Shown: positions 3,151-57,730 of the stretch, one piece after another
Numbering within the stretch: the first letter of the stretch is position 1
Layout: every line of letters begins with the position of its first letter
Assembly (NCBI GenBank): GCA_025352365.1
Contig: JANXTO010000136.1
Location: forward strand, 2,010 to 66,009
Direction: 5' to 3'
Source of the DNA: Undibacterium sp.
Lineage (GTDB): Bacteria > Pseudomonadota > Gammaproteobacteria > Burkholderiales > Burkholderiaceae_D
Length of the DNA: 64,000 nt
Translations under genes and position numbers: made by a program
Notes under the pieces: model-generated
Seen by the model: the letters and a program-made list of their open reading frames with translations, nothing else
The model's database searches: none
What the model was told of the DNA's origin: nothing

Positions 3151-3798
3151 TTAAGTACCCGGACTGCGCTTCACAAAAAATAACGCAGCACCAATCGCCA
3201 TTAAAATCCCACCGAAAAAGCGATTCTGCTTTTTCACTAAACGTGGATCGCGGAAATAGCGTTGCATCGATGACGCTGCCCATGCATAGCTATGCATCAC
3301 CACCAAATCTACAGCGCACATCGTCATCCCCAATATCAATAACTGTGGCAACAAGGGCGCGTCGTGGCTAATAAATTGCGGCAACACCGCCACCATAAAA
3401 ATGATCCCTTTTGGGTTCGTAGCATTGGTCAAAAATCCAATTAAAAATCGCTTACGCAAATCCGGTGCCATCGACGCTTGCGATGCCAAAGCACCTTCAT
3501 TCGCGCTGACATCGACTTTGGCACGCCATTGGCTAATGCCTAAATAAATCAAATACAAAGCACCGATGATTTTGACAGCGCTGAAAGCAAATTCGGACGC
3601 CATCAAGATAGATCCTACGCCAGCACCGGCAATCGTAAACACCAATAGCAAACCGGCTTGCAAACCCATGATGGTGCCGCTCGTTTTTTTAACGCCATAA
3701 TTTAAGCCATGCGCCATCGAGAGCACGGCACCAGAGCCCGGGGAAATCGCAATCAAACACGCTGCGAAAAAAAAGGTAAGCCAGAGGGTAAACGTCAT
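3151..3798 (-). CDS. LysE/RhtB-family amino-acid exporter
   Basis: The N-terminus MTFTLWLTFFFAACLIAISPGSGAV is typical of LysE/RhtB, in a ~215-aa six-TM protein. I chose the start at the internal ATG (3798) rather than the ORF-track start (3846). Confidence 0.8.
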   Translation of the reverse strand: MTFTLWLTFFFAACLIAISPGSGAVLSMAHGLNYGVKKTSGTIMGLQAGLLLVFTIAGAGVGSILMASEFAFSAVKIIGALYLIYLGISQWRAKVDVSANEGALASQASMAPDLRKRFLIGFLTNATNPKGIIFMVAVLPQFISHDAPLLPQLLILGMTMCAVDLVVMHSYAWAASSMQRYFRDPRLVKKQNRFFGGILMAIGAALFFVKRSPGT

Positions 3799-3958
3799 GA
3801 TGAGTCCGTAAGTATTTTGAGCAAGAGCGAATAAGCCAGGCAGCAAGTTTGCTGGGGGTCTATTTTAATCTGTGGAAGAAATTCGAGGACAAGCGCATCA
3901 CAAAATAAGAGAAATAAAATTTTTTCGCTTACTTATTTTGCTATTGGACTGGCTTTAC

Positions 3959-5524
3959 TTAGCCACGCATCATGGCGGCTAATAATTGACTCTTTAAGGT
4001 TTTAATCAATGCAGTTTCGTCAGGAGGAACACCCTCTTCTGCCGCAATTGCACGGTCTGCATAAAAAAATCCCAATGATTTTTTCTGGATGACGAGCGGT
4101 AATACAATAAAGCTCAGGGCATCTGGTAACAGCGCACGATGCCAGCTTGGGAGCAGTTTTTGTATCTTCGGAGCGGTCGCATCAGAGATCATCAAATCCG
4201 CATTATTGGTCATGGCCAAATGAAACACGTCTTGCTCTACTTTCATCGGGAATACAAAGCCTCGCTGTCGCTCTGCATATAGTTCGCCAACTGACACACG
4301 TGCCATAAAGCTGGAAGTGGACGGGTCTCGCAAACAAACCGTGGCGAAGCGAAAACCCATGCTGCTGTACAAGGTCTCCAGCACCAGCAATATCATGTCA
4401 TTGAGTTTGATTTGATCAGACGCCAGCATTTGCGTAACGTCTTGTACGCCTGCCAGCAAGAGGTCACGTGCATTGCGTGGCTTGCCGCTAGCGTAGCGTT
4501 CAGCCTGCTGCATTTGATCTGCATTAAAACTTTTTAGCAAAAATTCGCTAGGGAATTCGCCATCGGCAGACAGTGCGTCATCCGTGTCACCAGCAGCAGG
4601 CAGAGCGATGTCCATACTCTCTGCTAGTTGTCTGGTTTCTTGCGTTACTCGCGCCACCATTTCTTCCAGCTTGGCTTGATCGAGCTCTAAGACTTTGCCA
4701 AATTTTTGCAGTAAAGGTTTACAGCGTGCGCTCAGATTATCTGTGCCTGTGGTGAGTACCAGACTGGCTACGCCGTCGCTAAAGGTGGAGACTTGCTTAA
4801 GCCACTCGTTACGGTGGCTGGCTTTTTTTTGTTCACCGGCGGGTAATGCCCCCAGTGATTGAATAATGGTGTCGGGAATTTTCCAATCCTGCAATGCCAT
4901 CTCGCCAAAACGGTCATAACTGCAACCTAACAACAAGCTGGAGGCATCGGCAGCATTCGCCTGCCCGCTTGTTTGCATGGCCTGTATGCGTCCGTATAAA
5001 ACATGATCAAACGAGGCGACTAGAACCCGTCCAATATTTTTAAACAAAGCGGCAACGGCGGCTTCTTCTGCATCTTGATAATGACTACGCTGCGCTAGTT
5101 CACGTCCGACGATACTAGCGCAAAGCGCATGTACCAGCTCTTTGCGGACACTTTGCGCATGTTTTTTATCTTTAAAACAATCCACCAGCAACATCGCCAA
5201 TGCTCCGGTTTTTACCGTGTCAAACCCGAGCAAAAAAATCGCTCTTGAAATCGTAGTGACTGGGACGGTAGCCCGGGTGCGGTAATGAATGGTGTTTGAT
5301 AAACGCAATATTTTTTGCGTCAGTGCTACGTCAGCCAAAACAAAATGTGCCAGCTTGGCAATCGAATCTTCGCCAGAAGAAGTGATCTCCACCACCTTGG
5401 ATACGACTGCGCCCAAGGTCGGCAAAGTGGCATCTTCTGCAATTTTTCTGAGCAAGCGATCACGCGCAATTTCTGGCGCATTCTGCTCTAAATTAACGGA
5501 GGTATCGATAGGCATAGATAACAA
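3959..5524 (-). CDS. HDOD-domain signalling protein with a C-terminal GAF-like domain
   Basis: The N-terminal part has an HDOD-like pattern (LPTLGAVVSKVVEITSS...LAHFVLADVALTQKILRLSN). The C-terminal ~160 aa resembles GAF (ATVCLRD...LVLPLVIQKKSLGFFYADR). Confidence 0.7.
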   Translation of the reverse strand: MLSMPIDTSVNLEQNAPEIARDRLLRKIAEDATLPTLGAVVSKVVEITSSGEDSIAKLAHFVLADVALTQKILRLSNTIHYRTRATVPVTTISRAIFLLGFDTVKTGALAMLLVDCFKDKKHAQSVRKELVHALCASIVGRELAQRSHYQDAEEAAVAALFKNIGRVLVASFDHVLYGRIQAMQTSGQANAADASSLLLGCSYDRFGEMALQDWKIPDTIIQSLGALPAGEQKKASHRNEWLKQVSTFSDGVASLVLTTGTDNLSARCKPLLQKFGKVLELDQAKLEEMVARVTQETRQLAESMDIALPAAGDTDDALSADGEFPSEFLLKSFNADQMQQAERYASGKPRNARDLLLAGVQDVTQMLASDQIKLNDMILLVLETLYSSMGFRFATVCLRDPSTSSFMARVSVGELYAERQRGFVFPMKVEQDVFHLAMTNNADLMISDATAPKIQKLLPSWHRALLPDALSFIVLPLVIQKKSLGFFYADRAIAAEEGVPPDETALIKTLKSQLLAAMMRG

Positions 5525-40662: not shown

Positions 40663-42659
<1,997 letters not shown>

Positions 42660-42778: not shown

Positions 42779-42864
42779 AATATATTCCCCATAAAATTTT
42801 AGCAATTAGGCTTAATGTCCAATCATTATTTGGACGTCTAAAATATACTTACAGCAGTATATTT
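42779..42864 (-). repeat. Copy 8 of the ~85-bp intergenic repeat
   Basis: TATATTCCCC (42781-42790), core ATGTCCAATCATTATTTGGACGT, and ATATACTTACAGCAGTATAT hairpin. Confidence 0.75.
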
Positions 42865-42951
42865 TTAATCACAAATTATCGCGGCAAACAACGTCATATC
42901 AGATCGCATAAATTCAGATGCCCCAATTAAATTCATAGTTAAATTTTAGGC

Positions 42952-43015
42952 AAAAAAAAGCCCGCAGAGTGTGCGGGCTGAAATCCAAACCTTTACGGTG
43001 TTGGAGGAGACAGGT
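42952..43015 (-). ncRNA. Candidate sRNA A (sibling pair); 5' end approximate
   Basis: The minus strand reads (TATAGT -10-like)...CUGUCUCCUCCAACACCGUAAAGGUUUGGAUUUCAGCCCGCACACUCUGCGGGCUUUUUUUU. The parts are a single-stranded CU-rich seed, a hairpin CCAA(C)ACC/GGUUUGG, an AU-rich linker, and a GC-rich terminator hairpin followed by U8. Confidence 0.6.
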
Positions 43016-43209
43016 ATAACTATATCGCAGTGCAGCAAATAAACAAAACATTATTTTTGCATATCAATCATTCACAAAGCGAATATCAAACTACCGAGTA
43101 TTTCCTCTAAATTTTCCCTCAAAATATTACGCAACATCAAAGCGAATTTACTTCCATAGGAAAGCCCGTCATTTTCTATGCGGAATAAACTACCACTGAT
43201 TTCATAGGC

Positions 43210-43278
43210 AAAAAAAAACCCCCTACCTTAAGGTTGCGGGCTGAAATCCAAACCTTTACGGTGTTGGAGGAGACAAAC
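43210..43278 (-). ncRNA. Candidate sRNA B (sibling pair); 5' end approximate
   Basis: It shares a 40-nt block (GCGGGCTGAAATCCAAACCTTTACGGTGTTGGAGGAGACA on the plus strand) that is identical to copy A. It has its own imperfect terminator hairpin (CCCGCAACC/GGTAGGGGG) plus U9, and a conserved upstream block TTATTTGCTGC(A/G)CTGCGATA(T/A)AGT. Confidence 0.55.
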
Positions 43279-43383
43279 TCACTTTATCGCAGCGCAGCAA
43301 ATAAGGCTGCTTTATTTTTCGTATACCAGTTATTTCCAAAACACATAATGTTCATTTGCAGCAACAAGTTAATAAGATAGGAC

Positions 43384-44406
43384 TTACCCACCGCTAGATT
43401 CATTTAAATGACAAGCTGAAAAATGTTGCGAAGCTATCTCTTTAAGAGCGGGTTGTTCAGCTGCGCAACGTGGCATAGCATGCGGACAGCGTGGATGAAA
43501 ATAGCATCCAGAAGGTGGATTCAGCGGAGATGGAATTTCACCCTTGATAGCAAAAAATGTAGTTTTTTTCACCTCTAGCTTAGGTGCTGCGGCCAACAAT
43601 GCTTGCGTATACGGATGGTTGGCATGTCCAAATATCTCCTCTGCAAGTGCCGACTCCACCACTTTGCCCAAATACATAATCACTACCCGATCCGACAAAT
43701 GGCGCACCACGCCAAGATCATGGCTAATAAACAGATAGGTCAGGTTTAATTCCTGCCGTAGTTGCATAAATAAGTTCAGCACTTGCGCCTGAATCGAGAC
43801 GTCCAACGCTGCGACGGCTTCATCACAGACTAAAAATTCGGGCTTTACAGCCAGCGCGCGGGCAATGCCGATCCGCGCACGCTGTCCGCCAGAAAACTGA
43901 TGTGGAAAACGCCGTAAAACAGCAGGATCTAAACCGACCCGCTGCAACAAATTTTCGACATAAGACTTTTGTTCAGAGGCTGAGATAATCTGATGCACAA
44001 CGGGCGCTTCGCCAATAATGTCTTGTACTCGCATACGCGGATTAAGAGACGCATACGGATCTTGAAAAATCATTTGTATGCCAAGCTGTACCTTGCGCTG
44101 GGCAGTGCTTTCCATTTGCCTCACTTCTTGCCCGCGCCACCAACGCGAGCCATCAGACAACGAATGCAAACCGACCGCCATGCGTCCTAGAGTCGATTTG
44201 CCACAACCAGATTCACCAACCAGACCAACCACCTCACCGGCTTGCACCACCAGATTCACCTGATCAACCGCGTGCACGGTCTGTTGCTGCATATCGGCAC
44301 CAAACACATTGGCGATCTTGGCGGCGGTATCCAATGGTTTGACGAAACGTTTGCTGACATTGCGCAGCTCTAATATCGGTGTAGCGTCAGAGTGAATAAT
44401 GCTCAT
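43384..44406 (-). CDS. Peptide/nickel (Dpp/Opp-type) ABC transporter ATP-binding protein (F-type subunit)
   Basis: Walker A GESGCGKST, signature FSGGQRARI, Walker B LVCDEAV, and a C-terminal oligopeptide-transporter Cys-rich tail. The ATG at 44406 overlaps the upstream stop (ATGA). Confidence 0.9.
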   Translation of the reverse strand: MSIIHSDATPILELRNVSKRFVKPLDTAAKIANVFGADMQQQTVHAVDQVNLVVQAGEVVGLVGESGCGKSTLGRMAVGLHSLSDGSRWWRGQEVRQMESTAQRKVQLGIQMIFQDPYASLNPRMRVQDIIGEAPVVHQIISASEQKSYVENLLQRVGLDPAVLRRFPHQFSGGQRARIGIARALAVKPEFLVCDEAVAALDVSIQAQVLNLFMQLRQELNLTYLFISHDLGVVRHLSDRVVIMYLGKVVESALAEEIFGHANHPYTQALLAAAPKLEVKKTTFFAIKGEIPSPLNPPSGCYFHPRCPHAMPRCAAEQPALKEIASQHFSACHLNESSGG

Positions 44407-45416
44407 GCGACTAACTCGCTCTCTAAGGGTACTGGATGAAAACAACGCACAGAGCGGCCATCGATCTCTGTTAAAGCTGGCACATTGGCGCAATCGCTCT
44501 GCGCCTGACTACAACGCTCACGAAAAACACAGCCGACGGGTAAGCTTAATAAGGAAGGTGTCATGCCGGGAATCTGATGTAAAGCCTGACCACGCGGGTT
44601 GCGTGACGGCGCCGAGGCGATCAAGCCATAGGTGTAGGGGTGACGTGGCTGATTCAGCACTTGCTCCACCGTACCACTCTCAACAATCCGGCCAGCATAC
44701 ATCACGCTCACGGTATCGGCCAATCCGGCAATCACCGATAAATCATGCGTGATCCAGATTAAGGAGGTACCGGATTCGCGGCAAAGTTTTTGCATCTCAA
44801 ACAGAATTTGTCCTTGTATCGTCACGTCCAAGGCCGTTGTCGGCTCGTCGCAAATAATCAGATCAGGTTTATTCAGCAGAGCAATCGCAATCGCCACGCG
44901 TTGACGCATGCCGCCAGAAAATTGATGCGGATACGACATCAACCGCTCGTCCGGTGAAGGAATGCCTACCCGCACCAAAGCATCACGTGCCATTTCCATC
45001 GCAGCAGATTTACTTACTTTGTGATGGGCAAAAATGCCCTCGGTCATTTGCGTGTCTATCCGCAATACCGGATTTAAAGTCATCATCGGATCTTGAAAAA
45101 TCATCGCAATGCGGTCACCTCTTACCTGACGCATTTGCTCTGCAGACATCGCCCGCAAGTCCTGACCTTTGAGTAAAATTTGACCACCCACGACTTTACC
45201 CGGCGCATCAATCAAACCCATGATGGAATAACCGGTCATCGATTTGCCCGATCCAGACTCACCCACTAATCCCATAATTTGACCAGGCATCACCGAGAAC
45301 GAGACATCATTCACTGCGGTTGCTATTCCTGCGCGGGTATGGAACTCGGTCGTCAATCCTTCGACACTCAGCATTGCTTGGCTTGTTTGCCTTGCTTTTT
45401 TTTCTTCTAGCATCAT
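44403..45416 (-). CDS. Peptide/nickel ABC transporter ATP-binding protein (D-type subunit)
   Basis: Walker A GESGSGKS, signature FSGGMRQRV, and Walker B IICDEPTTALD. Confidence 0.9.
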   Translation of the reverse strand: MMLEEKKARQTSQAMLSVEGLTTEFHTRAGIATAVNDVSFSVMPGQIMGLVGESGSGKSMTGYSIMGLIDAPGKVVGGQILLKGQDLRAMSAEQMRQVRGDRIAMIFQDPMMTLNPVLRIDTQMTEGIFAHHKVSKSAAMEMARDALVRVGIPSPDERLMSYPHQFSGGMRQRVAIAIALLNKPDLIICDEPTTALDVTIQGQILFEMQKLCRESGTSLIWITHDLSVIAGLADTVSVMYAGRIVESGTVEQVLNQPRHPYTYGLIASAPSRNPRGQALHQIPGMTPSLLSLPVGCVFRERCSQAQSDCANVPALTEIDGRSVRCFHPVPLESELVA

Positions 45417-45422
45417 GTCCCC

Positions 45423-46340
45423 TTATTGTGTTTGCAAACGCGGATTAAGCACATCGCGCAACTGATCAGCCACCAGATTAATGGACACGACCGTCACCAA
45501 TAAAGCGATACCAGGGAAGAAACTGATCCAGTATTTACCCGACAACAGATATTGGAAACCATTTGCAATCAGCAGTCCCAGCGAGGGTTCAGTGACTGGC
45601 AAACCCAAACCTAAAAAGGATAACGTCGCCTCTAGTGAAATCGCCGAAGCTACCTGTAAGGCGGCGATCACAATCAACGGCGGTAAGCAATTAGGTAACA
45701 GATGCCGCAAAATAATTCGGGCGGGTGACAAACCCAAGCCTATTGCAGCTTCCACATATTCCTTTTTGCGCTCCACCAAGGCTGCGCTCCTTGCGGTGCG
45801 GGCGTAGTAAGCCCATTGCACTGCGACCAGCGCGATGATGATTTTGCCCACGCCCTGCCCGCTCAGCGCCAGCAAAATCAAGGCAATCAAAATCGGTGGA
45901 AACGACAACTGAATATCTGCAATCCGCATAATTAATGACTCGATCTTGCCACCGGCATAGCCAGCGAATAGCCCCAACGTTAAGCCAATCACCAAAGCAA
46001 TCACGGTACTGCTAACACCAACCATCACTGAAATACGTAAGCCATAAATAATCGCAGAGAGCATGTCACGTCCCTGCTCATCAGTGCCCATCAGAAAACG
46101 TAATTTGCCATCGGCCGACATCTGACCAGGCTCCAGACGCGAGTCCATCACATCTAAATTACCCAGATCGTAGGGATTTTGTGGTGATATCCAAGGGGCG
46201 AAAAGTGCCGCCAACAAAATCAATACCAGCAACACTAAACCAGCCGTAGCGATTTTGCTTTCAAAAAATTGGCGGGTAAATCGCCGGAACGGCGTATCCG
46301 CTTTAAACGGGGCTGCTGTTTTTTGCACTGTCGTCGTCAT
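45423..46340 (-). CDS. Peptide ABC transporter permease (DppC/OppC-like)
   Basis: BPD_transp_1 EAA-like loop (EYVEAAIGLGLSPARIILRHLLPN) in a six-TM protein. Confidence 0.88.
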   Translation of the reverse strand: MTTTVQKTAAPFKADTPFRRFTRQFFESKIATAGLVLLVLILLAALFAPWISPQNPYDLGNLDVMDSRLEPGQMSADGKLRFLMGTDEQGRDMLSAIIYGLRISVMVGVSSTVIALVIGLTLGLFAGYAGGKIESLIMRIADIQLSFPPILIALILLALSGQGVGKIIIALVAVQWAYYARTARSAALVERKKEYVEAAIGLGLSPARIILRHLLPNCLPPLIVIAALQVASAISLEATLSFLGLGLPVTEPSLGLLIANGFQYLLSGKYWISFFPGIALLVTVVSINLVADQLRDVLNPRLQTQ

Positions 46341-47314
46341 GATTTGCTCTCAGAAAGTCGGACTCGTGGGTCGAGCAAAGAATACAAAACATCTACCACC
46401 AGATTAATCAAAATAAACATCGTCACAATCAGCAGCAAATACGCCACGATGACAGGCCGGTCCAGTACACGGATAGAATCAATAATCAGCTTCCCCATAC
46501 CCGGCCAGGCGAACACCGATTCCGTCACAATCGCGAACGCAATAATCGAACCAAATTGCAAAGCAATCACGGTAATGATCGGTATTAAAATATTTTTGAG
46601 CACATGCACGCCAATGATGCGGCTATTTCGCAAACCCTTGGCACGTGCAAATTTGACATAGTCTTGCAACAGCGCTTCTTGCGCACCGGCACGCGTCAGG
46701 CGTATGACCAATGCGACGTTAAACAAGGCCAGATTAAATGCGGGCATCAGGATATGTCGCAGGCCATCCCAACTTAAAAAACTTACGGGAATACCGAAGA
46801 GCAAACTGGTTTCGCCACGTCCGCTGGAGGGCAACCAGCCTAACTGCACTGCAAACACCATAATCAGCATCAACCCTACCCAAAATGTAGGCAATGAAAA
46901 ACCGAGAATGGAAACCGCCATAATCGTTTTTCCCGCTACGCCGTTGGGACGCAACCCCGCCCACAAACCAAGCGGTATGCCTATCACTACCGACAAAAAG
47001 ATAGCGCAGACTGCGAGCTCCATTGTTGCTGGCATGCGTTCAAAAATCAGCGCAAGGGCCGGCGTAGAAAACGCAAATGAGCGTCCCATATCACCGCTGA
47101 GTGCATTTTTTAAAAATATAAAATATTGCTCGACCATCGGTTTATCTAAACCAAATGCGGCAATGGTGCGAGCACGCTCTAGCTGATCGGCGTCTGGACT
47201 AATCAATACATCAATAGGGTTACCGATTGCGTACACGCCGGCAAACACCAGCAGCGACATCACCAGTAAAACAATGATGCTTTGCATCAGACGGCGAATA
47301 ATAAAAACCAACAT
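46337..47314 (-). CDS. Peptide ABC transporter permease (DppB/OppB-like)
   Basis: The N-terminus MLVFIIRRLMQSIIVLL is typical of DppB, with a YVKFARAKGL EAA loop. Its stop region overlaps the start of the downstream permease gene. Confidence 0.88.
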   Translation of the reverse strand: MLVFIIRRLMQSIIVLLVMSLLVFAGVYAIGNPIDVLISPDADQLERARTIAAFGLDKPMVEQYFIFLKNALSGDMGRSFAFSTPALALIFERMPATMELAVCAIFLSVVIGIPLGLWAGLRPNGVAGKTIMAVSILGFSLPTFWVGLMLIMVFAVQLGWLPSSGRGETSLLFGIPVSFLSWDGLRHILMPAFNLALFNVALVIRLTRAGAQEALLQDYVKFARAKGLRNSRIIGVHVLKNILIPIITVIALQFGSIIAFAIVTESVFAWPGMGKLIIDSIRVLDRPVIVAYLLLIVTMFILINLVVDVLYSLLDPRVRLSESKS

Positions 47315-47437
47315 GCTGCTTCCTATTCCACTGTCAAAACTTACTCAAAATTACGTCAAGCGTCATCGATCATTCTCATGCACGAATATGAAAATGAACG
47401 ATGACGTAGTAAGACACATACGACTATTCAGGTCTGA

Positions 47438-49057
47438 TTACTTAGCACTAAAATCGTACGCATGAGTGCGTTCGTCGGTACGTGGAATATAGGTAATATT
47501 CTTCTTCATGGCCCAGGTCGTCACCTGCTGATGAATCGGAATGATCTCGGCATCATTGATCACCAGCGCAGTCGCATCTTGCAATAACTTCAGGCGGACT
47601 TTATCGTCTACTGTGTTCATTGCCTTACCTAAGATTTCATTCACTTTAGGATTGCAATATTTGAGGTAGTTGTTACCGCCAAACCCTTTTTCAGGCTCAT
47701 CACAGGCGGCAATCGCGCGTAAAGGGGAAGAGACTTCGCCAGTCTGTGCGCCCCAGCCGAGCAGGCCCATAGAGTATTCACGCTTAATCCCGCGCGAGGC
47801 GTAGATCGACATTGGCATACCTTCTACCTTGGCTGCGATACCGATTTTTGACAGCATTTGGGCAATTGTTTGGGTAATTTTCTCATCATTGACATAACGA
47901 TTATTCGGGGTCTGGATGGTGACACCAAAGCCGTTGGGATAACCAGCCTCGGTCAATAATTTTTTAGCCATGTCTGGATCGTATTTCATGACTTTGAGTT
48001 CGGGATTATGCCCAAATAAAGTGATAGGAACCAAGTTGGCAGTCGGCTGTGACAGTCCTTCCATAACACGATCTTTAATCGCGTCACGATTGATCGCCAT
48101 CGAAATCGCTTTACGGACACGGATATCTTTCAATGGATTTTTATCCATAGGCTTGCCATCTTTGTCCGTGATAAACGGTGATTTATCGCGAGTACCATCC
48201 AGATATAAATAGATCAGGCGGTGCGATACTTTTGACATCATGGTCAGATTGGTGTCGCTACGGATACGGGCAACATCGGGGGTCGGTACGTTCTCTAAGG
48301 CTTGCACATCACCCGCTAACAAAGCCGCAATGCGGGTCGCGCCGTTAGGAATAAAACGCAACGTCATTTTGCTCCATTTACCGGCTTTTTTACCCCAATA
48401 ACCATCGAAGCGATCCATCTCAATTCTGTCATCGCGCAGAAATTTGACAAACTTGTACGAGCCGGTACCGACCATCCCTTTGCCGCTAGAAAAATCATCG
48501 CTGGTCAAACCTTGCGTGGCTTTTTTAGAAACGATGTAAATCGCTGACAAATCCGGCAACATTAACGGGTAAGGCTCTTTGGTGGTCAGGCGAATGGTGT
48601 AGGCATCGACGATCTTTTTATTGATGATTGCTTTGGTGTAGACATCAAATTTGCCCGGGCTACCTACGATGGTTGCCGGACGATCTAATGACCACATCAC
48701 GTCGTCGGCAGTCATTTCGGAACCGTCATGAAACTTGACGCCTTTGCGCAGTTTTAATTCCCAGGTCAGGTTATTCACCAGCGTCCATGATTCTGCCAGG
48801 CCAGGAATGATGCGACTATCGGCATCCATGGTGACCAGAGTCTCAAACATATGGTCTGAGACATTCAGGTTAGGAAACACATTATAAAAATGGGGATCGA
48901 GCGAAGTCGGTGGCGAACTCATCGCCAATTTAAATTCTTGCGCAAAACTCTGTGGCGAGACAGCCATTAATGCAGAGAAGGCAGAGATACTGGCAGCCAG
49001 CAACACTGTGCGTGGTTTTATTTTTATTTTGCTTTTGATTGTGTGCAGCATCGACAT
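47438..49057 (-). CDS. Family-5 ABC substrate-binding protein (peptide/nickel binding)
   Basis: A 539-aa protein with a signal peptide and SBP_bac_5-like blocks (LVTMDADSRIIPGLAESW...KFHDGSEMTADDV). It is the first gene of the five-gene operon. Confidence 0.88.
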   Translation of the reverse strand: MSMLHTIKSKIKIKPRTVLLAASISAFSALMAVSPQSFAQEFKLAMSSPPTSLDPHFYNVFPNLNVSDHMFETLVTMDADSRIIPGLAESWTLVNNLTWELKLRKGVKFHDGSEMTADDVMWSLDRPATIVGSPGKFDVYTKAIINKKIVDAYTIRLTTKEPYPLMLPDLSAIYIVSKKATQGLTSDDFSSGKGMVGTGSYKFVKFLRDDRIEMDRFDGYWGKKAGKWSKMTLRFIPNGATRIAALLAGDVQALENVPTPDVARIRSDTNLTMMSKVSHRLIYLYLDGTRDKSPFITDKDGKPMDKNPLKDIRVRKAISMAINRDAIKDRVMEGLSQPTANLVPITLFGHNPELKVMKYDPDMAKKLLTEAGYPNGFGVTIQTPNNRYVNDEKITQTIAQMLSKIGIAAKVEGMPMSIYASRGIKREYSMGLLGWGAQTGEVSSPLRAIAACDEPEKGFGGNNYLKYCNPKVNEILGKAMNTVDDKVRLKLLQDATALVINDAEIIPIHQQVTTWAMKKNITYIPRTDERTHAYDFSAK

Positions 49058-49385: not shown

Positions 49386-49443
49386 GGTTCGCTATTGGTT
49401 CGCTATTTTGTTCGCCATTGCTACCGCTATTGCCCACTATTTG
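49386..49443. repeat. Five phased imperfect direct repeats with core C(G/C)CTATT, 10-13 bp apart
   Basis: The units are ggttcgctatt / ggttcgctatttt / gttcgccatt / gctaccgctatt / gcccactattt. They lie immediately upstream of the RBS of the M20 gene. Confidence 0.6.
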
Positions 49444-49456
49444 TACGGAGAACATC

Positions 49457-50656
49457 ATGCAATTAATTGACCCTATCCTCCAGTTCCATACAGAACTACA
49501 ACAAATCCGACGCGATATTCACGCCCATCCTGAGTTGAGTTTCGAAGAGCATCGCACCTCAGATGTTGTGGCCCGCAAGTTACAAGAATGGGGCATCCCT
49601 GTCATTCGCGGCCTTGGCACCACCGGCGTAGTTGGCATCATCAAAAACGGTCACAGCCAGCGCGCCATCGGATTGCGTGCTGACATTGATGCTTTACCGA
49701 TGCAAGAATTCAATACCTTTGCGCATGCCTCAAAAAATGAAGGCAAAATGCATGCCTGCGGCCATGACGGTCACACAGCGATGCTGTTAGGTGCGGCACA
49801 TTATTTATCTCAGCACAAAGAATTTGACGGCACTGTGTATGTGATCTTTCAACCGGCAGAAGAAGGTGGCGGTGGCGCCAAGCGCATGATGGATGACGGC
49901 TTGTTTGAACAGTGTCCGATGGAAGCGGTATTTGGCATGCATAACTGGCCGGGTGCGGCAGTGGGTAGTTTTGGCGTGACCTCCGGGCCGATGATGGCGT
50001 CGTCCAATGAATTTGACGTCGTCGTCAAAGGTAAAGGTGCCCATGCGGCGCAACCTCACAAGGGTATCGATCCCATCATGGTCGCGGTGCAAATTGCGCA
50101 AAGCTGGCAAACTATTATCACCCGCAACAAAAGCCCGCTGGACACCGCGGTGCTATCCATTACCCAAATCCACGCCGGTAGTGCAACCAATGTCATCCCC
50201 GATGAAGCCAGCTTAATCGGTACGGTGCGCGGCTTCACCACATCGGTGGTGGATCTGCTGGAAAACCGGATGCGTGCTATTGCAGAACATACTGCCGCTG
50301 CCTTTGATGCCTCCGTTGAATTTAGCTTTAAACGTAACTATCCGCCACTGATCAATCACGCCAGAGAGACCGCCTTTGCTGTCGATGTAATGCGCTCTAT
50401 CGTCGGAGATGAGCGCGTTGATGCGCAGGTAGAACCCACTATGGGCGCAGAAGATTTCGCCTTTATGTTGCAGGCCAAACCGGGTTGTTATGTCTTCTTA
50501 GGCAATGGCGATGGCGAGCACCGCGATATGGGTCATGGTCTGGGACCATGCAACCTGCATAACCCCAGTTATGACTTTAACGATGATTTGCTGCCGATAG
50601 GTGCAACTTATTGGGTACGACTGGCAGAAGCCTACTTGAAAAATACAAGCCCATAG
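49457..50656 (+). CDS. M20-family amidohydrolase (hippurate hydrolase / N-acyl-amino-acid amidohydrolase-like)
   Basis: Blocks RRDIHAHPELSFEE, ALRADIDALP, HACGHDGH and FQPAEEGGGGA. The ATG at 49457 lies 8 nt after GGAG. Confidence 0.88.
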   Translation: MQLIDPILQFHTELQQIRRDIHAHPELSFEEHRTSDVVARKLQEWGIPVIRGLGTTGVVGIIKNGHSQRAIGLRADIDALPMQEFNTFAHASKNEGKMHACGHDGHTAMLLGAAHYLSQHKEFDGTVYVIFQPAEEGGGGAKRMMDDGLFEQCPMEAVFGMHNWPGAAVGSFGVTSGPMMASSNEFDVVVKGKGAHAAQPHKGIDPIMVAVQIAQSWQTIITRNKSPLDTAVLSITQIHAGSATNVIPDEASLIGTVRGFTTSVVDLLENRMRAIAEHTAAAFDASVEFSFKRNYPPLINHARETAFAVDVMRSIVGDERVDAQVEPTMGAEDFAFMLQAKPGCYVFLGNGDGEHRDMGHGLGPCNLHNPSYDFNDDLLPIGATYWVRLAEAYLKNTSP

Positions 50657-55478: not shown

Positions 55479-55895
55479 TTAATTCGCAATCATTTTAACG
55501 GTCGCATCTACACTGGATTTTTCAATATAGCCGATGGCATTCAGATCAGATGCTACTGCTTTCTTTACCTCGGCGCTGGAGCCATATTCTTTGGGTAAAG
55601 TACCTTTGCCGGTGAAGACTAATTTTGACCAAATTGCCTTTACTTGTGAGGGTTCTTTATCTGCTACCTTTTTATAAAACTCTGCCCGTATAGCGGAGTT
55701 TTCAGGCTGATCTACCGGCGTAAAAGTAGTGGATTTACCGAGAAAATACTGCGCCACCTGTTCCGGCGTCATATTTGCTACCGGGTTTTTAGGATTGACT
55801 ACAATCACGACATCTGCCAAGGCTGGCAATGCCATTGCGGTTAAAGTGAAGGTCAAACTCAAGGCCAAAAAAATACGGTGGGAAATTGCTTTCAT
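55479..55895 (-). CDS. Small (138 aa) periplasmic PstS/PBP-like single-domain protein
   Basis: A signal peptide precedes the blocks VVIVVNPKNP...QVAQYFLGK...WSKLVFTGKG...IGYIE, which resemble half of a type-2 phosphate-binding-like PBP. The ATG is preceded by GGAGG. Confidence 0.65.
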   Translation of the reverse strand: MKAISHRIFLALSLTFTLTAMALPALADVVIVVNPKNPVANMTPEQVAQYFLGKSTTFTPVDQPENSAIRAEFYKKVADKEPSQVKAIWSKLVFTGKGTLPKEYGSSAEVKKAVASDLNAIGYIEKSSVDATVKMIAN

Positions 55896-57319: not shown

Positions 57320-57730
57320 TTATGGAAGACTGACGACTACTTTGACACTGGAATCAACCGCAGATTTTTCGATATAACCGATCAAATTCGTATCCGCAGC
57401 AACGGCTTTTTTAACATCTGCACTAGAGCCGTATTCTTTTGGCAGAGTACCTTTGCCAGTAAAGACCAACTTTGACCAAATCGACTTCACCTGAGATGGT
57501 TCTTTGTCTGCCACTTTTTTATAAAACTCGGCACGAATTGGAGAACTTTCTGGCTGATCTACTGGTGTTAATTTGGCAGATTTACCTAGGAAAAATTGTG
57601 ATACCTCATCTGCCGACATAGCAGAAGCGGCACTCTTTGCACTAACGATGGCAACAACTTCAGCCATTGCCGGAACAGCAAAAAGTGTCAGACTGGCGGC
57701 AACAACACTAGCTTGAATAATTTTTTTCAT
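57320..57730 (-). CDS. Small periplasmic PstS/PBP-like single-domain protein (paralog of 55479-55895)
   Basis: The C-terminal two-thirds is nearly identical in protein sequence to its paralog (PVDQPE.S.IRAEFYKKVADKEPSQVK.IWSKLVFTGKGTLPKEYGSSA). The ATG at 57730 is preceded by GGGGGA. Confidence 0.65.
   Translation of the reverse strand: MKKIIQASVVAASLTLFAVPAMAEVVAIVSAKSAASAMSADEVSQFFLGKSAKLTPVDQPESSPIRAEFYKKVADKEPSQVKSIWSKLVFTGKGTLPKEYGSSADVKKAVAADTNLIGYIEKSAVDSSVKVVVSLP

Follow-up and report, generated by a model that had tools for sequence, protein, structure and literature searches.

A tandem pair of probable RF02278 small RNA genes beside a peptide ABC transporter operon in a relative of Undibacterium

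Introduction

What is encoded by two short units with an identical core that lie about 260 bp apart between a peptide ABC transporter operon and an adenosine deaminase gene? The units were found in a 64-kb stretch of DNA (hereafter the window), and a preliminary description had read them as sibling small RNAs (sRNAs) with a CU-rich seed, naming the Rfam 'Betaproteobacteria toxic small RNA' family (RF02278) as a guess. Members of RF02278 are expressed, CU-rich RNAs that slow growth if overexpressed (PMC5688073, PMC4603805), and 55–80% of their predicted interactions cover ribosome-binding sites (PMC5688073, PMC10987360). In Burkholderia cenocepacia levels of the RF02278 RNAs increase in biofilms, under starvation and in stationary phase; growth slows when one of them, NcS27, is overexpressed and becomes faster when its CU region is silenced by antisense (PMC5688073, PMC10987360). 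The Hfq-dependent S17S of Bordetella pertussis represses a sigma-54 activator directly via single-stranded CU-rich sites; its candidate targets include many transporters, and its targets, reached by ribosome-binding site pairing, are enriched for transporters and regulators (PMC11722255). The Neisseria sRNAs NmsR (NgncR_162-163) bind Hfq and repress TCA-cycle and amino-acid genes through anti-Shine-Dalgarno (anti-SD) sequences (PMC5362039, PMC9973317).

Results

All coordinates below refer to the plus strand of the window, and both RNAs are encoded on the minus strand. A repeat search placed a 41-nt direct repeat with 100% identity at 42972–43012 and 43235–43275, 263 bp apart, in agreement with the 40-nt identical block described earlier; the 40-mer occurred exactly twice in the 64-kb window, compared to zero occurrences expected from 100 shuffles. 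The conservation claimed for the upstream region was also borne out by a second, 24-nt repeat at 43019–43042 and 43281–43304 (92% identity), which reads TTATTTGCTGC(A/G)CTGCGATA(T/A)AGT on the minus strand and stands once before each copy. Copy A (42952–43012) would specify an RNA of ~61 nt, UGUCUCCUCCAACACCGUAAAGGUUUGGAUUUCAGCCCGCACACUCUGCGGGCUUUUUUUU, and copy B (43210–43275) an RNA of ~66 nt, which has the same first 41 nt as copy A and a different terminator.

Folding reproduced the sRNA layout that had been proposed: both RNAs were predicted to start with a 7-nt free 5′ UGUCUCC. Hairpin 1, which has a single bulged C (UCCAA(C)ACC-GUAAA-GGUUUGGA), comes next and is linked by AUUUC to the terminator. 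In copy A, the CU-rich seed UGUCUCCUCC, corresponding to the anti-SD 'site 1', covers 43003–43012, and hairpin 1, with its GUAAA loop devoid of a second CU motif, covers 42984–43005. The seed as a whole is thus less exposed than first described, since UGUCUCC alone (nt 1–7 of the RNA) is unpaired in the predicted 5′ end and the UCCAA after it is taken up in the base of hairpin 1. Each unit carries an intrinsic terminator of its own, as had been claimed. The terminator of copy A (42952–42979) consists of a clean 8-bp stem with six G-C pairs, a CACUC loop and a U8 tract (42979→42959). The copy B terminator (43210–43242) has an imperfect stem with internal mismatches, AGCCCGCAACC-UUAA-GGUAGGGGGUU, followed by U9. 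The folding energy was −22.8 kcal/mol (z = −4.25) for copy A and −19.9 kcal/mol (z = −1.9) for the whole copy B RNA. Both copies have a U8–9 tail and an AUUUC linker, which would suit Hfq-dependent trans-acting sRNAs.

The upstream blocks (43019–43060 for copy A and 43281–43322 for copy B) have the appearance of promoter regions. Copy A is preceded by a −10 hexamer TATAGT at 43019–43024, which spans −12 to −7 when counted from the U at 43012, by the conserved spacer TTATTTGCTGCACTGCGA and by an A-rich tract farther upstream; its −35 element (TTTGTT or TTGTTT) is poor. The −10 hexamer of copy B, TAAAGT at 43281–43286, lies one nucleotide nearer the start, 5 nt before the RNA, and is accompanied by the conserved spacer TTATTTGCTGCGCTGCGA and by a AAAAATAAAGCAG element typical of the first copies in Undibacterium arrays. 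Weak −35 elements were common to both copies, and TTATTTGCTGCNCTGCGATA represents the conserved promoter spacer. The same upstream block precedes Undibacterium-type copies elsewhere, with the −10 hexamer at the canonical distance and conserved across copies and species. These positions agree with the mapped 5′ end in B. cenocepacia, which is the G of GUCUCC (PMC5688073 supplement). Each gene would be served by a putative sigma-70-type promoter with its −10 hexamer 5–6 nt before the RNA start. As a separate observation, Massilia and Janthinobacterium loci (L002, L011, L045, L091 and others) carry a perfect inverted repeat, ATGCTG-N5-CAGCAT, at about −30 to −7 of each sRNA, where it overlaps the promoter −10 and forms a candidate operator; the equivalent block in the window and in Undibacterium, TTGCTGCNCTGCGAT, is conserved and not palindromic.

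We then compared the whole window with Rfam 15 by cmscan, at gathering thresholds and at permissive thresholds. Two matches passed the gathering thresholds: RF02278 (Betaproteobacteria_toxic_sRNA) at 42952–43012 on the minus strand, coinciding with copy A and scoring 50.7 bits (gathering score, 50), and an unrelated Mn2+ riboswitch (yybP-ykoY, RF00080; 1258–1389, plus strand; 63.3 bits; gathering score, 45). The next best match to RF02278 was copy B, which scored 37.4 bits and so fell below the gathering score (E = 1.2e-05 in a local search); this sub-threshold score arises because the 3′ arm of its terminator is mutated and the stem weakened. A model derived from Oxalobacteraceae relatives (R1) gave 73.4 bits for copy A and 64.5 bits for copy B, and by this score copy B is clearly homologous to the family despite the low Rfam score. 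The family named in the preliminary description was thus recovered. Weak overlapping matches to Bp1_781, anti-hemB and Trp_leader were rejected: all fell well short of the respective gathering scores and owed their bits to the terminator and the CU stretch. No further RF02278 copy was found in the 64 kb, either with Rfam at E ≤ 1 or with our own model run with filters off.

Direct alignment with the B. cenocepacia RNAs ncS03, ncS05 and ncS62, which are known from dRNA-seq and TSS mapping, pointed to the same family. The window copies have GUCUCCUCCA, UGGAUU, AGCCCG and the terminator layout in common with all three, and the 5′ motif (U)GUCUCCUCC at the RNA start is identical in the five RNAs; the seed UGUCUCCUCC of copy A was invariant in all family members found and forms the 5′ end of ncS03 and ncS05. 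Both copies show the two-hairpin RF02278 architecture, in which hairpin 1 is closed by CCA/UGG and is followed by a short AU-rich linker and a Rho-independent terminator. The second CU-rich stretch in the hairpin 1 loop, which the Rfam model does not require, is absent from both copies. Taken together, the two units belong to RF02278, a betaproteobacterial sRNA family that has already been described, and are very probably (about 0.88) independently transcribed sibling genes for a trans-acting sRNA.

Relatives were collected by searching 185,579 species genomes for the pattern TGTCTCCTCCAAN{8,22}TTGGATTT, and the siblings in related bacteria proved numerous, at least 120 loci with at least 142 copies, with hairpin and terminator conserved. 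Almost all of the matches listed were from Oxalobacteraceae, with Massilia, Janthinobacterium, Undibacterium, Herbaspirillum, Noviherbaspirillum, Pseudoduganella and Glaciimonas among the genera. A scan of metagenomes with the exact 32-mer including the GUAAA loop returned no match. Besides the window, at least 15 loci carry two to three same-strand copies 185–1100 bp apart, and the largest array among the matches listed, four tandem copies ~190–220 bp apart, lies at 3472–4125 (plus strand) of L044, a MAG assigned to Burkholderiales REEB395. The array carriers are Undibacterium, the allied Oxalobacteraceae genera Pseudoduganella and Rugamonas, and unclassified MAGs. Undibacterium and allied genera of this family typically have same-strand arrays of two to four copies.

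The flanks of the window array belong to the same group of bacteria. On one side, xdhC (encoding a xanthine dehydrogenase accessory protein) and the adenosine deaminase gene (40663–42659, plus strand) converge on the array. On the other side lies the peptide ABC operon (dppABCDF-like; 43384–49057, minus strand), the dppF stop codon of which is at 43384, and an M20 peptidase gene is located at 49418–50656. The flanking genes and the array are syntenic with loci of Undibacterium and Oxalobacteraceae, at 70–88% nucleotide identity, and the GC content of the window (~48%) together with the flanks matches the Undibacterium group. Judged by these matches, the host is an Oxalobacteraceae bacterium near Undibacterium and hence a member of Burkholderiales, which provides the betaproteobacterial host expected for RF02278. 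In the Undibacterium clade, arrays adjoin an adenosine deaminase gene (L083 and L049), a dpp operon (dppF/dppD homologues with 73–84% amino-acid identity in L025, L067, L084 and L105) or an M20 peptidase gene, which directly adjoins the array without an intervening dpp operon in L013, L043 and L098. These shared flanks across the clade indicate that the array is old and positionally conserved, with the neighbouring dpp operon variably present.

This arrangement bears on the origin of copy B, which the preliminary description had considered as a possible 3′-UTR-derived sRNA of the ABC operon. According to this explanation, copy B, and perhaps copy A, would be made mainly by read-through from dpp, with RNase E freeing the ~66-nt RNA and the output following the operon. 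The dppF stop codon is separated from copy B by only ~110 nt on the same strand, and no terminator-like site was found on the minus strand between them (43276–43384), which implies that operon read-through would end at the copy B terminator; judging from this layout, the peptide ABC operon probably terminates there. Processing also has precedents in the family: RNase E generates S17S from the longer S17L (PMC11722255), and a processing site is reported for ncS27 (PMC5688073). However, copy B has a conserved promoter block of its own, whose −10 hexamer precedes the RNA by 5 nt, and the same block stands before the first copies in the three M20-adjacent loci that have no dpp operon there. In addition, the gap between dppF and the array, ~170 nt in L084, extends to roughly 0.8–2.4 kb in L025, L067 and L105. 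We therefore regard the 3′ UTR as an unlikely main source of these RNAs. The two routes are compatible with each other, and the 3′ UTR is a possible second input to copy B that is not required, because copy B has its own putative promoter.

Independent transcription of two sRNA genes remains the preferred reading. From the matches listed, at least 142 terminator-bearing copies were extracted, 123 of them unique, and all 123, when folded singly, formed two hairpins after a 7-nt lead. A covariance model was built from 53 representatives and 87 copies were aligned with it; 95.8% of the cells in this alignment paired, and compensatory changes were present in 8 of the 14 pairs, the covariation being carried by the inner stem of hairpin 1 (AU/UA, CG/UA) and by the terminator. 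None of 500 shuffles reached any of these measures, and slid controls paired in 19–51% of the cells. The five outer pairs of hairpin 1 were invariant, partly because the search pattern had fixed them. The combination of MAFFT and RNAalifold on the 53 representatives recovered the outer stem of hairpin 1 only and missed the terminator because differences in loop length put the arms out of register, and the covariance-model alignment was used instead.

These data also bear on a more passive explanation, in which the units would be a non-functional intergenic repeat (REP-like or a miniature mobile element) or mere terminators of the adenosine deaminase and dpp genes, with no trans-acting RNA role. 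The convergent intergenic position and the terminators at the ends of both units are in keeping with it, and these terminators may well also halt dpp read-through. Nevertheless, the 64 kb contain no more than two copies, neither inverted repeats nor target duplications were seen at their flanks, and each copy has a conserved putative promoter before it. Moreover, the seed and hairpin 1, which covaries, are the best-conserved portion across Oxalobacteraceae, more so than the terminator, and the Burkholderia and Bordetella homologues are verified sRNAs (PMC5688073, PMC11722255), all of which makes a passive repeat highly improbable. Still less credible is a small protein or a dual-function RNA encoded by the 45-aa ORF at 42914–43051 (minus strand), which does have an ATG start and overlaps copy A, and for which a putative 32-aa ORF noted in the longer Bordetella S17 RNA (PMC11722255) offers a parallel, but which starts before the predicted promoter −10 and continues through it, has no minus-strand counterpart at copy B and no Pfam match, and lies where conservation tracks the RNA structure rather than a reading frame.

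The two siblings differ in their history in spite of the identical core. The promoter (AAAAATAAAGCAG...) and terminator (..CCUUAAGGUAG..) of copy B match the first copy of Undibacterium arrays, while the promoter type and exact terminator of copy A match the middle copy of L025 (Undibacterium sp. RuTC16W). This correspondence to different array positions argues that copies A and B are old paralogues and not products of a recent duplication. The loop of the L025 middle copy is UCCUAA, and that of copy A in the window is GUAAA, as in copy B. We infer that the 41-nt identity reflects family-wide constraint together with probable local gene conversion. The 3′ arm of the copy B terminator is GGUAGGGGGU, whereas its orthologues have GGUAGCGGGC or GGUCGCGGGC at this place. 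By this comparison the copy B terminator is a weakened version of the one in its orthologues, which qualifies the earlier view that the terminators conserve structure and not sequence: the two stems do differ in sequence, but that of copy B is a degraded form.

The loss of the second CU site in both siblings is a minor local peculiarity. Among the matches listed, 93 of the 123 unique relatives have such a site (CUCC, UCCU or CCUC), and only nine have no CU tetramer in the loop at all. As S17S and ncS03 use the second site, the target range of the window copies is possibly narrower than that in the model organisms.

A third sibling, which is usual in relatives, is absent from the window. In its neighbourhood, at ~42800–42905 on the minus strand, there is a promoter-like block, CTGATA-16-GATAAT (42902→42875), in which gttgtttgccgcgataatttgt is similar to the promoter block of the siblings. 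A perfect, AT-rich hairpin of 10 bp (42840–42865) comes next, and after it GUCCAAauaaugaUUGGACAUUAAGCC, which has CCAA...UUGGA like hairpin 1 and the linker, without the CU seed. From these resemblances the element may be a decayed third sibling; our own model, with filters off, gave this look-alike only 2.8 bits, which is not significant.

Discussion

Our analysis provides a correct annotation for two previously unannotated sRNA genes. The current understanding of the RF02278 family is unchanged by these copies, and the novelty is limited to details: the tandem layout as opposed to the dispersed copies of Burkholderia, the lost second seed and a possible coupling to dpp.

The closest well-studied counterparts are ncS03, ncS05, ncS27 (NcS27) and ncS62 of B. 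cenocepacia, which, like the window copies, have a 5′ GUCUCCUCCA seed, hairpin 1, a UGGAUU(U)(C)AGCCCG linker and a terminator. The double-hairpin RNAs of that species are likewise ~60 nt long and multi-copy, and three of the Burkholderia copies, similar to the window siblings, have a conserved upstream DNA motif in common (PMC5688073). They differ from the window copies in the hairpin stem (CCAUGUC/GAUAUGG in Burkholderia, CCAACACC/GGUUUGG in the window), in the loop, where a second CU-rich site CUCCUC takes the place of GUAAA, and in being dispersed: the Burkholderia literature states that they 'occur not in tandem' (PMC5688073), whereas the window copies are 263 bp apart and RF02278 genes in Undibacterium and allied Oxalobacteraceae form tandem arrays. 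S17S of B. pertussis resembles the window RNAs in its family-level 5′ sequence and two-hairpin layout, but is a single-copy RNA without a promoter of its own that RNase E releases from a ~190-nt precursor (PMC11722255), and it uses sites 1 and 2, of which the two window copies keep site 1 only. Within Oxalobacteraceae, the family to which the window host would belong, Hsnc059, Hsnc063, Hsnc086 and Hsnc107 of Herbaspirillum seropedicae are RF02278 members at four separate loci, and were among the predicted sRNAs profiled for expression by RNA-seq (PMC7011215). Their hairpins (CCAAUUUCCUCCU...) keep the second CU site that the window copies do not have.

The Neisseria RNAs NmsRA and NmsRB (NgncR_162/163) are tandem intergenic siblings with CU-rich anti-SD sequences in unpaired regions (PMC5362039, PMC9973317), as are the window genes. 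However, these Neisseria RNAs exceed the window RNAs in length, have three stem-loops and two anti-SD sites in contrast to two stem-loops and one CU site, are ~70% identical to each other, and occupy the dsbB-lrp locus instead of the add/dpp locus. We saw no Rfam link between the two groups, and NmsRA/NmsRB are a functional analogue that resembles the window copies in layout only.

By analogy with NcS27 and ncS03 of B. cenocepacia and S17S of B. pertussis, from which transcription, Hfq dependence, targets and physiological role would all carry over, the two tandem siblings would be transcribed independently to give trans-acting sRNAs of roughly 60–66 nt belonging to the 'toxic sRNA'/double-hairpin family. 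The free 5′ UGUCUCC(UCC) seed would pair with GGAGG-containing ribosome-binding sites of many mRNAs, the expected targets being GGAGGAGA-type sites, mainly on transporter and amino-acid or carbon catabolism mRNAs. With Hfq assisting, such pairing would block translation initiation and reduce mRNA levels once nutrients are exhausted. Hfq-assisted anti-SD repression of transporter and catabolic mRNAs through site 1 only is thus the most likely mode of action suggested by these homologues. If the role of the family, to shut down the uptake and catabolism of nutrients, applies here as well, the siblings are probably major post-transcriptional regulators in this bacterium, and the loss of the second seed in both of them amounts to a natural test of the contribution of each seed.

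A further step, which we consider doubtful, would combine two of the local peculiarities, with the siblings homogenised to a single-seed form and copy B doubling as the terminator and 3′ end of the dpp operon. If true, transcribing a peptide-uptake operon would in itself add to the supply of a global repressor directed against ribosome-binding sites, and the dual input from the 3′ UTR and from its own promoter would be an arrangement not described for RF02278. The tandem arrays of the Undibacterium clade would then also form a link between the dispersed copies of Burkholderia and the tandem NmsR siblings of Neisseria.

Within the 64-kb window, which is too small for target prediction, neither a search for perfect seed complements of at least 8 nt nor RNAduplex against 307 candidate start regions returned a convincing target; the scans gave only strong generic Shine-Dalgarno sites, and the top matches did not include the dpp gene for the substrate-binding protein. 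Within the window, seed pairing was strongest (−15.1 and −13.4 kcal/mol) with two paralogous ~137-aa genes at 55479–55895 and 57320–57730 (both minus strand), and these duplexes may reflect no more than strong Shine-Dalgarno sites. The two genes have a common leader, CUAUUGAUUUYGUAUUUUAAGGRGG, and one of them showed a weak, sub-threshold match to PBP_like_2.
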